A program made the position numbers and the translations under genes. From a virus (lineage: Duplodnaviria; Heunggongvirae; Uroviricota; Caudoviricetes): a stretch of 4,093 bases of DNA. The notes beneath the pieces were generated by a model. The model made no database searches and had not been told where the DNA came from. It was given only the letters and a program-made list of their open reading frames with translations. Positions 3,029 to 4,093 of the stretch are shown piece by piece; the first letter of the stretch is position 1; every line of letters begins with the position of its first letter. Location: IMG/VR virus record IMGVR_UViG_2541047427_000008. The stretch is one strand, 5' to 3'.

Positions 3029-3586
3029 ATGACCACTATTACCAAAGATCGACTGCTGACAATCCAGCATTGGCGCGAAACATACGGACCGGGTAGCAAC
3101 GTTGTGCTTCCAGCAGAAGAAGCGGAAGAGCTGGCACGGATTGCGCTGGCATCACTGGCAGCAGTATCGGATGAACGAGCAGCCTATGAATTATTTATGG
3201 AGAAGCGTTTCGGAGAATCTGTAGATCGCCGCAGAGCAAAAAATGGCGATAGAGAATACATGGCATGGGATATGGCGCTTGGCTGGATTATCTGGTGTCA
3301 CCGCGCCGCCATGCTTCAGGCTGGAAACTTTCGGGAAAATAAGGGTTCGTCAACCAATAATTTTCGGATAATCTCGGAAACGTCAACCAACTCTCCGGCA
3401 ATCCCTGATGAGGTGTTGTCCGCAATCCTGAAGGTCGCCAGGCTTCGTGCAGATTTCGATGCTTCTGAAGTGGACAGGCGAGGTATCGGTAGTTGTCTGG
3501 ATGAGGCCGAGCAAGAACTTATCGTTACCATTAACGAATACGCCAGTCAGATCGCAGTAGAAGCGACACAGGGGGAGAACCAATGA
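3029..3586 (+). CDS. Hypothetical protein (185 aa)
   Basis: ATG at 3029 two bases after the upstream TAG, with AAGGTGA at 3013-3019 as a possible ribosome-binding site. Contains an internal imperfect tandem repeat. Ends at TGA 3584-3586. No family recognised. Confidence 0.65.
   Translation: MTTITKDRLLTIQHWRETYGPGSNVVLPAEEAEELARIALASLAAVSDERAAYELFMEKRFGESVDRRRAKNGDREYMAWDMALGWIIWCHRAAMLQAGNFRENKGSSTNNFRIISETSTNSPAIPDEVLSAILKVARLRADFDASEVDRRGIGSCLDEAEQELIVTINEYASQIAVEATQGENQ
3326..3391 (+). repeat. Imperfect tandem direct repeat of 2 x 33 bp inside the 3029-3586 CDS
   Basis: Units 3326-3358 and 3359-3391 match at about 22 of 33 positions by hand alignment, each ending in an identical CGTCAACCAA (3348-3357 and 3381-3390). 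Confidence 0.5.
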
Positions 3587-3660
3587 GCCGGCCAGATGCA
3601 TTTGCAGGCGTTGCTATAGCTATTGCTTTTCTAGTATATGTTATTTGTCGGTGGGGGTAA
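3583..3660 (+). CDS. Putative 25-aa hydrophobic mini-protein (MSRPDAFAGVAIAIAFLVYVICRWG)
   Basis: ATG at 3583 overlaps the upstream stop (ATGA at 3583-3586), preceded by GGGGGAG at about 3572-3578. Single hydrophobic stretch; stop TAA 3658-3660. Not in the ORF track, presumably below its length cutoff. Short ORFs arise by chance, so this is tentative. Confidence 0.35.
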   Translation: MSRPDAFAGVAIAIAFLVYVICRWG

Positions 3661-3695
3661 AAACGTTCGCCGGGATTCACACCAAGGGAGGGAAT

Positions 3696-3800
3696 ATGTC
3701 GGATGATATTTCACTGGTAATGGAAGGCGCTCTGGCTGTTATTGCTGTTGTGGGTGTTTACTGCCTGGTTGTGTTTTTGATGGAGCGCCTGGGGAACTGA
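3696..3800 (+). CDS. Putative 34-aa single-pass membrane peptide (MSDDISLVMEGALAVIAVVGVYCLVVFLMERLGN)
   Basis: ATG at 3696 preceded by AAGGGAGGG at 3684-3692 (about 4-nt spacing). Acidic N-terminus then a roughly 20-residue hydrophobic helix; stop TGA 3798-3800. Not in the ORF track. Confidence 0.45.
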   Translation: MSDDISLVMEGALAVIAVVGVYCLVVFLMERLGN

Positions 3801-3810
3801 ATTCATTCCG

Positions 3811-3826
3811 TATGGGAATTCCCATA
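3811..3826. repeat. 16-bp perfect palindrome TATGGGAATTCCCATA, possible dimeric protein-binding site
   Basis: Exactly self-complementary, centred on GAATTC. Sits between the 34-aa peptide stop (3800) and the predicted hok promoter -35 (3841). No downstream U-run, so not an intrinsic terminator. Confidence 0.6.
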
Positions 3827-3840
3827 TCGGGCAAAACGGT

Positions 3841-3868
3841 TTGCTGTAAAGCGAGAGTTAAGTAGAAT
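3841..3868 (+). promoter_or_regulatory. Predicted sigma-70 promoter for the hok-like mRNA
   Basis: -35 TTGCTG (3841-3846), 16-bp spacer, -10 TAGAAT (3863-3868). Predicted start near 3875, just before GCTTGAGGCT (3879-3888), which matches the 5' end of plasmid R1 hok mRNA as I recall it. Confidence 0.5.
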
Positions 3869-3874
3869 TGCTGC

Positions 3875-4043
3875 GGGTGCTTGAGGCTGTCTGCCTCGGG
3901 CATGCCACCGTAAGGCAGACAGAGAAAAGCCCCAGTTAACATTACGCGTCCTGCAAGACGCCTAACATTAATCTGAGGCCAATTTCATGCTAGACACATG
4001 TAGGTTAGCCTCTTACGCGCCGAAAGGCAAGGAGAAGCAGGCT
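3875..4043 (+). other. Structured 5' leader of the hok-like mRNA, including a 10-bp stem and a mok-like upstream start
   Basis: Inverted repeat CTGTCTGCCT (3887-3896) / AGGCAGACAG (3913-3922) with a 16-nt loop. Downstream blocks AGCCTCTTACGCGCC and GCAAGGAGAAGCAGGCTATGAAG resemble hok-family leaders. ATG at 3987 with GAGG at 3975-3978 is in frame with the hok ATG. Confidence 0.55.
3930..3995 (-). ncRNA. sok: Predicted Sok-like antisense RNA (antitoxin of a type I toxin-antitoxin pair)
   Basis: By analogy with R1 hok/sok. Minus-strand promoter-like elements: -35 TTGCCT (complement of 4025-4030), 17-bp spacer, -10 TAACCT (complement of 4002-4007). Transcript would cover the mok-like start region. 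A short hairpin GCGTC-N6-GACGC is present, but ends are guessed and no clean terminator is seen. Confidence 0.35.
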
Positions 4044-4093
4044 ATGAAGCAGCAAAAGGCGATGTTAATCGCCCTGATCGTCATCTGTATTAC
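4044..4093 (+). CDS. hokD: Hok/Gef-family type I toxin, HokD/RelF-like; first 16 codons only, truncated by window end
   Basis: ATG at 4044 preceded by AAGGAGAAG at 4029-4037. Translation MKQQKAMLIALIVICI matches the HokD/RelF N-terminus as I recall it (MKQQKAMLIALIVICLTVIV...). Confidence 0.85.
   Translation, partial: MKQQKAMLIALIVICI

Follow-up and report, generated by a model that had tools for sequence, protein, structure and literature searches.

Sequence and RNA structure point to a complete hok/mok/sok cassette among the early genes of a lambdoid prophage in O157:H7-type Escherichia coli

Results

Genetic Context of the Locus

The last 260 bases of the window (the whole stretch of 4,093 nt of viral DNA that was analysed) very probably belong to a complete type I toxin-antitoxin cassette, hok/mok/sok, of the hokD/hokW subfamily that lies among the early genes (replication to nin) of a lambdoid prophage in E. 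coli of the O157:H7 type. The window itself covers the front part of the module, about 60% of it, and ends at codon 16 of Hok. The C-terminal two thirds of the toxin, the 3′ element fbi and the terminator were read in near-identical public records instead of the source molecule. A prophage present in 278 complete E. coli genomes, mostly of O157:H7, shares 99.4% identity with the window over 95% of the window's length. The prophage of E. coli O157:H7 strain LSU61 (L001; window coordinates equal L001 coordinates minus 2399) is 100% identical to positions 3834–4093, and a second relative (L020) is identical over 4044–4093. In the 400 nt downstream of the window end these two independent prophages differ by one base.

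In strain FRIK1989 the element adjoins potC, and the gene order is integrase, excisionase, racR-like repressor, replication genes, DUF1627, DUF4406, ead/Ea22-like, DUF551, a small ORF, “hokD”, DUF968, RusA and antiterminator Q. This is the order of a lambdoid prophage, in which hok/sok follows the replication genes and precedes DUF968, RusA and Q. The module is free of IS insertions, frameshifts and stops, and every regulatory element is intact. There are four to eight related places per O157-type genome, the identical leader was found again in several independent loci, and 114 of 140 related loci retain the tac motif together with the Sok promoter box. A complete cassette is the rule among related loci, and the leaderless hokD of K-12 is the exception.

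A preliminary description, made from the letters of the window, had proposed a hok/sok-type module embedded in a prophage and spanning 3811–4093. In sequence, the RNA elements by which the family is defined are all present, either in the window or downstream of it in records that are identical over 3834–4093. The proposed interval holds from about 3835–3855 on, where conservation among modules begins; the first 25–40 bases, including a palindrome at 3811–3826, lie outside the conserved module. This palindrome is not a terminator, since no T-run follows it. It forms the core of the near-perfect palindrome ccgTATGGGAATTCCCATAtcgg at 3809–3830, about 15 bp upstream of the −35-like hexamer of hok. 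Twenty related loci carry the exact 16-mer core in the same place, and the four that were checked have the perfect 22-bp palindrome CGATATGGGAATTCCCATATCG. The core is also found in a Photorhabdus locus (L064 1252–1267). The palindrome may be a protein-binding site.

Two small hydrophobic ORFs precede hok, one of 25 aa at 3583–3660 (MSRPDAFAGVAIAIAFLVYVICRWG) and one of 34 aa at 3696–3800 (a RefSeq hypothetical protein). Neither of them has a match in Pfam. A similar ORF of 27 aa (MTWPEAFANVGTVMAVVLVVYSICRWR) is found directly upstream of hokW in phage 933W. In the late region of the LSU61 prophage, after a tRNA-Ile/Arg/Arg cluster, a match to the Rfam sRNA STnc100 was observed (L001 10384–10556, 100.8 bits).

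Reading Frames of Hok and Mok

The start of a HokD/RelF-like toxin had been recognised at the window end, and it corresponds to the RefSeq hokD CDS (WP_001303917.1; 51 aa in relatives with the identical leader), the product of which is named “type I toxin-antitoxin system toxin HokD”. The frame on the plus strand begins with the ATG at 4044–4046, opens with MKQQKAMLIALIVICIT, and runs through 16 codons and the first two bases of codon 17 up to the window end (4044–4093). A Shine-Dalgarno sequence, GGAG, is located at 4031–4034, 9 nt before the ATG; it is paired with CUCUU in the predicted fold of the full-length mRNA and free when the RNA is trimmed. Reading on into the near-identical public records yielded an intact 51-aa Hok with the conserved C-terminal region, followed by a fold-back 3′ end and a terminator. 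The full-length Hok from L001 matches Pfam HOK_GEF with 83.2 bits (cut-off 22). NCBIfam returned only sub-threshold matches to Hok and HokA (48 and 40 bits, cut-offs 73 and 89), which are uninformative beyond the Pfam result because they stay below the cut-offs. Codon Tyr47 of Hok lies in GCUUACGAA (L001 about 6575–6590, outside the window) and matches the tRNA-Arg2-like UACG motif that is edited by TadA; Tyr-to-Cys recoding at the Tyr47 position was described for hokC, hokD and hokE in a recent survey preprint (bioRxiv 10.1101/2025.08.07.668861).

A second reading frame, mok, starts with an ATG at 3987 and runs to the window end, where it is cut (3987–4093, plus strand). Its Shine-Dalgarno sequence GAGG (3975–3978, 8 nt before the ATG) is invariant across relatives. 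Between 3987 and 4044 there is no stop codon, and mok stays open through the hok start and in frame with it, adding an N-terminal extension of 19 codons to give 70 codons in total. The same arrangement is annotated for mokW and for mokC of K-12. Translation of mok would be coupled to that of hok.

The hok mRNA Leader and Its Match to RF01794

A covariance-model search of the whole window against Rfam resulted in a single real match, RF01794, on the plus strand at 3875–4049 (116.9 bits, gathering score 59, E = 3.8e-27, full model coverage 1–157). A match to the snoRNA ceN48 (21.3 bits, E = 0.76) was dismissed as chance. As controls, K-12 hokC scored 118.3 bits, hokB 109.7 and an R1-type locus 88.9, all on the hok-sense strand. 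Although RF01794 carries the name “sok antitoxin”, in K-12 it matches the strands of hokC, hokB and hokE, opposite to the annotated sokC, sokB and sokE. The family therefore models the sense-strand hok leader, and a match proves a hok leader but by itself does not demonstrate an antisense RNA.

Position 1 of the Rfam model falls on 3875, the predicted 5′ end of the hok mRNA. The leader begins there with tac, GGGTGCTTGAGG (3875–3886), which is invariant among modules of the hokD/W type and is predicted to pair with the 3′ fbi when the mRNA is full-length and with ucb once it is trimmed. The 5′ element GCTTGAGGCT named in the preliminary description is present at 3879–3888 and overlaps tac. The leader hairpin follows at 3887–3922. 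Its stem of 10 bp had been proposed as well, and is formed by CTGTCTGCCT (3887–3896) and AGGCAGACAG (3913–3922), with three additional inner pairs. The leader helix of the Rfam model has 13 bp; its outer two and innermost positions do not pair here, so that only 10 of 13 pairs form in the window.

The stem had been reported to differ from that of plasmid R1 at one position in each arm, with pairing preserved. As R1 reference we used L018, which was found by tblastn with an R1 Hok sequence; L004 was dropped in favour of L018 because an IS150 is inserted in the L004 leader. The Hok of L018 is 100% identical to the sequence that we take to be R1 Hok. Compared to HokW it shows 44% identity and 69% similarity, and for R1 Hok and HokW the published values are 44% and 69% (PMC8621323). 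The R1-type stem reads CTTTCTGCC/GGCAGAAAG, or CUUUCUGCC/GGCAGAAAG, and the corresponding arms in the window are CUGUCUGCC/GGCAGACAG. The single differing pair is U-A in L018 and G-C in the window. This position covaries among 57 relatives, with AU in 37, UA in 10, GC in five, GU in four and unpaired bases in one.

Further elements of the family follow on the plus strand. The anti-Shine-Dalgarno element ucb (AAGCCCC, 3927–3933) has two predicted partners, the mok Shine-Dalgarno sequence in the full-length fold and tac in the 3′-trimmed fold. The Sok target hairpin (3934–3974) is about 19 nt longer than those of R1 and hokC and contains a 16-nt insertion relative to the Rfam consensus, which is common to hokW of 933W and all copies of the hokD/W type. 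The element dcb (GCCTC, 4008–4012) is predicted to pair with GAGGC (3975–3979) in the trimmed and leader folds.

A complete hok-type leader was also observed on a plasmid of Salmonella serovar India (NZ_CP022016; L010 531–1096), with a tac-like 5′ end, the leader stem, a long Sok-target hairpin, a mok start and the boxes of the Sok promoter. Instead of hok, this leader is followed by an ORF of about 130 aa that resembles a lipoprotein and carries the annotation TolA C-terminal domain protein. A gene other than hok seems to have taken over the hok/sok control region.

Predicted Conformational Switch of the mRNA

The full-length mRNA of 419 nt, completed with the downstream sequence of L001, folds with a minimum free energy of −176.7 kcal/mol (z = −8.3). 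In this fold the first 12 nt pair with the 3′ element, and the resulting tac/fbi duplex of 12 bp has an energy of −21.5 kcal/mol. fbi, CCTCAACGCACCC, is located outside the window, 49 nt after the stop codon in L001, and the terminator downstream consists of a CCCGCTTCGGCGGG hairpin and a T-run. The distance between stop codon and fbi is 45–56 nt in 38 of 39 loci examined. In the full-length fold the ribosome-binding site of mok is bound by ucb (AAGCCCC) and that of hok by CUCUU. When the last 47 nt were removed in silico, the thermodynamic prediction changed to pairing of tac with ucb and of GAGGC with GCCUC (dcb), and the hok site became free. This predicted switch between a closed full-length and an open 3′-trimmed form reproduces the switch and the ucb logic published for R1 hok mRNA (PMC9841398).

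Covariation across Relatives

The alignment (MAFFT) comprised 57 non-redundant leaders from Escherichia, Shigella, Kluyvera, Photorhabdus, Erwinia, Pantoea, plasmids and viral contigs, and pairs were counted on a structure drawn from the window’s own fold. On this basis, 86.3% of the cells in paired positions were paired, compared to 37–50% when the partners were slid against each other. Double-sided changes affected 16 pairs, versus a mean of 9.5 in shuffles, and none of 500 shuffles matched the observed values on any measure. Individual helices gave a similar picture: 93.8% of cells are paired in the leader hairpin, where three pairs show double-sided changes, 97.2% in ucb/tac, and 100% in the helix of dcb and the mok Shine-Dalgarno sequence, and in the extension of the Sok target hairpin one pair changes from G-C to A-U. 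The mok-start hairpin reached only 57.9%, probably because the alignment slips in a hypervariable segment, and was not relied on. Compensatory changes were also seen between tac and fbi in 39 loci (GGGTGC/GCACCC versus GGGCGC/GCGCCC, GAGG/CCTC versus GAGA/TCTC, and a hokB variant). These changes support the helices. The family score, the z values of the mRNA and of the antisense RNA (see below) and the alignment to relatives agree with the earlier suggestion that the leader has a conserved RNA fold and is not a product of chance.

Putative Promoters and the Predicted Antisense RNA

A plausible sigma-70 promoter had been suggested for hok, and a promoter for a Sok-like antisense RNA. For hok, the −10 box TAGAAT is located at 3863–3868, with 6 nt between it and 3875, where the Rfam model starts. 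In homologues TAGAAT, TACAAT, TATAAT or TATGAT is found at the same distance, plus or minus one base, from the GGGTGC/GGCGC 5′ end. The putative −35 box TTGCTG (3841–3846) lies 16 nt upstream of the −10 box, is weak with three of six consensus bases, and falls into a region that varies among modules. On the minus strand, the −10 box of the putative Sok promoter, TAACCT (complement of AGGTTA), is at 4002–4007, 6 nt upstream of the presumed start at 3995; in the R1-type locus TATCCT occupies this position. The −35 box TTGCCT (complement of AGGCAA) is at 4025–4030, with a spacer of 17 nt. The CAAGG box at the Sok −35 is invariant or nearly so across relatives, and so are the −10 columns. On the plus strand the corresponding boxes AGCCTCTTAC and AAGGCAAGG are seen downstream of the mok ATG. 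A generic scan of 3600–4093 for sigma-70 promoters and terminators gave no call for the promoters of hok and sok, nor for a terminator, and the match to the consensus is 8/12 for TTGCTG-16-TAGAAT and 7/12 for TTGCCT-17-TAACCT. We retain both promoters because their positions are conserved among homologues, and not because of their match to the consensus.

The predicted Sok-like RNA would extend on the minus strand from 3995 to about 3919–3925 and have a length of about 71–77 nt, with ends assigned by homology to the annotated sokC and sokW. When mapped onto the window, the 5′ end of K-12 sokC and sokW of 933W (3925–3995) have the same start at 3995, in agreement with the position of about 3930–3995 that had been predicted for the antisense RNA. 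The predicted fold (−32.9 kcal/mol, z = −6.3) has a free 5′ tail of 10 nt, a long hairpin and a GGGGCUUUUCUC tail; by this model the RNA has the architecture of Sok.

The region 3980–4000, which contains the mok start and the Sok 5′ tail, varies more than any other part of the module, which is nearly invariant elsewhere, with a mean entropy of 0.94 bits (peak at 3985–3994) compared to 0.05–0.55 in adjacent bins. Copies within one genome differ here, e.g., L022 and L032 of E. coli CP178302. This variability may limit cross-talk between co-resident Sok RNAs. It is improbable in our view that diversification of 3980–4000 stops up to ten co-resident cassettes from neutralising each other, giving every prophage its private antitoxin, and that the palindrome at 3809–3830 ties the hok promoter to a DNA-binding regulator.

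A poor −35 box that the generic scan did not call also fits a silent module, i.e., an evolutionary passenger like several chromosomal hok loci of K-12, which is little transcribed or produces too little Hok. The chromosomal E. coli loci hokA, hokB and hokC gave no post-segregational killing in earlier work (summarised in bioRxiv 10.1101/2025.08.07.668861), so an intact sequence is no guarantee of activity, and the presence of several related places per genome means that individual copies may be redundant. On the other hand, the module has not been disrupted, its regulatory elements are maintained by compensatory changes, its leader recurs unchanged in independent loci, and the sister system hokW-sokW is expressed and has a phenotype (PMC8621323). 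We consider it unlikely that the module is silent.

Discussion

Our data place the front of a very probably complete hok/mok/sok cassette at the window end, and nothing in this locus is new. The novelty implied by the preliminary description does not hold, because existing annotations cover the element and a close paralogue is characterised: hokW, mokW and sokW are named in the GenBank entry of phage 933W (AF125520), hokW-sokW of prophage Sp5 was demonstrated in 2021 to be a working type I system (Takada et al., PMC8621323), and a recent survey catalogued thousands of prophage hok genes (bioRxiv 10.1101/2025.08.07.668861). The value as a discovery is small. The locus does provide a clean positive control, as the RNA-level reading made from the sequence alone (5′ element, stem and compensatory change) was sound. 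In addition, the RefSeq label “hokD” hides the difference between a complete cassette and the K-12 remnant, and the family name “sok” of RF01794 hides that the sense-strand leader is modelled.

Proposed Mechanism and Role

From membership in the family we infer transcripts and their ends, half-lives, toxicity and a biological role for the window copy. A weak constitutive promoter (−10 box at 3863–3868) would produce a hok mRNA of about 420 nt starting at about 3875. In the full-length RNA the 5′ tac would be bound to the 3′ fbi, ucb would cover the mok site and CUCUU the hok site, and we propose that the RNA is translationally silent and stable as a consequence. Slow trimming from the 3′ end would remove fbi, tac would then pair with ucb, and the mok site would shift to the weaker pairing with dcb. 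Translation of Mok would subsequently drive translation of Hok, the 51-aa inner-membrane toxin. A stronger antisense promoter (4002–4030, minus strand) would in turn produce the unstable Sok-like RNA of about 71–77 nt, the free 5′ tail of which would pair across the mok start of the trimmed mRNA, block translation and lead to cleavage by RNase III. If synthesis of Sok stops or its level falls, upon loss of the element or upon prophage induction, the pool of stable mRNA would yield Hok and the membrane would be damaged.

The preliminary description considered a role in prophage maintenance or phage exclusion. For prophage copies a single experimental result is available, and it speaks for a different function, in lysis and phage release. 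HokW of Sp5 is toxic and is neutralised by sokW in dependence on RNase III and Hfq, and both RNAs were detected on northern blots. Mitomycin C lowers the sokW RNA and raises HokW in a way that depends on RecA, and when hokW-sokW is deleted, growth arrest sets in about 40 minutes later and only half as much Sp5 phage is released (Takada et al. 2021, PMC8621323). The window copy may likewise work mainly in lysis and progeny release by the induced prophage, instead of in maintenance or exclusion; its position in the early region upstream of Q, which on induction would see more read-through transcription and a higher gene dosage, would suit such a role. However, hokW is located elsewhere in 933W and Sp5, near the right end, so that regulation of the window copy on induction need not match. 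Moreover, the relative L020 carries several pseudogenes, and a lysis role presupposes that the prophage can be induced. We regard the lysis role as a tentative assignment, with the chances somewhat against it.

R1 hok/sok classically behaves as an addiction and abortive-infection system that kills the cell. By analogy, the window copy could mainly act when the prophage is lost or when a lytic phage shuts off transcription. The survey preprint reports that hok is enriched about four times in prophages (23% versus 5% expected), which is in agreement with addiction, but also that hok is not enriched beside defence systems (bioRxiv 10.1101/2025.08.07.668861). The chromosomal copies failed in killing tests, as mentioned above, and we consider this role of the window copy rather doubtful.

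Comparison with Known Systems

Independent of its main role, the locus can be compared as a hok/mok/sok cassette with four known systems. By sequence, the window copy is a paralogue of hokW-mokW-sokW of 933W (AF125520) and Sp5. Both have a leader of 172 nt with the extended Sok-target hairpin, an in-frame mok, a 51-aa Hok (90% identical) and the identical tac/fbi pair. The DNA is about 92% identical over the module, with differences clustering in the leader hairpin and in the region of the mok start and the Sok 5′ tail. One pair of the leader hairpin is G-C in the window copy and A-U in hokW of 933W. hokW is found near the right end of 933W and Sp5, whereas the window copy is located between the replication genes and DUF968-RusA-Q. 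933W lacks the CCCGCTTCGGCGGG terminator hairpin that is present downstream in L001.

K-12 hokD (relF) of the cryptic prophage Qin encodes a toxin that is 98% identical to the window-type Hok, with the single substitution L16I, and its 3′ UTR, fbi and terminator are the same. In both loci a DUF968 gene (ydfU in K-12) lies downstream and is separated from hok by one small gene, which is unnamed or rem. K-12 hokD, however, is located directly behind relBE and has lost promoter, tac, Sok target, mok and sok, all of which the window copy keeps at the level of sequence. Similarity of Qin to the window starts only at caggagaagcaggctATG, the hok ribosome-binding site, directly behind relE, and the Qin hokD locus has no match to RF01794, which bears out the earlier statement that K-12 hokD lacks an antisense partner of its own. 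The window is not a relBE-hokD remnant of the K-12 type, as the full leader is present, and the RefSeq name “hokD” reflects the 98% protein identity and not the type of locus. In the LSU61 prophage relB-relE are found about 5 kb upstream of the complete hok/sok and on the opposite strand (L001 714–1185 vs. L003 1847–2373). Rearrangement of an LSU61-like prophage appears to have given rise to the K-12 arrangement.

The hok/sok (parB) system of R1 shares elements and their order with the window, i.e., tac, leader stem, ucb, Sok target hairpin, mok Shine-Dalgarno sequence, dcb, Sok promoter (predicted in the window), hok Shine-Dalgarno sequence and fbi. It differs by a Hok of only 44% identity, a mok that is out of frame with hok, a longer leader loop, the shorter Sok target hairpin, and its location on a plasmid instead of a prophage. 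hokC/mokC/sokC (gef) of K-12 resembles the window in its in-frame mok, 19 codons longer than hok, in its comparable Rfam score, and in its 5′ end (GGGTGCTTGAGGCTGTCTG), the first 19 bases of which are identical. Its leader has 153 nt and a short Sok target hairpin, compared to 172 nt in the window, and the locus is chromosomal, not part of a prophage, and disrupted downstream by IS186.
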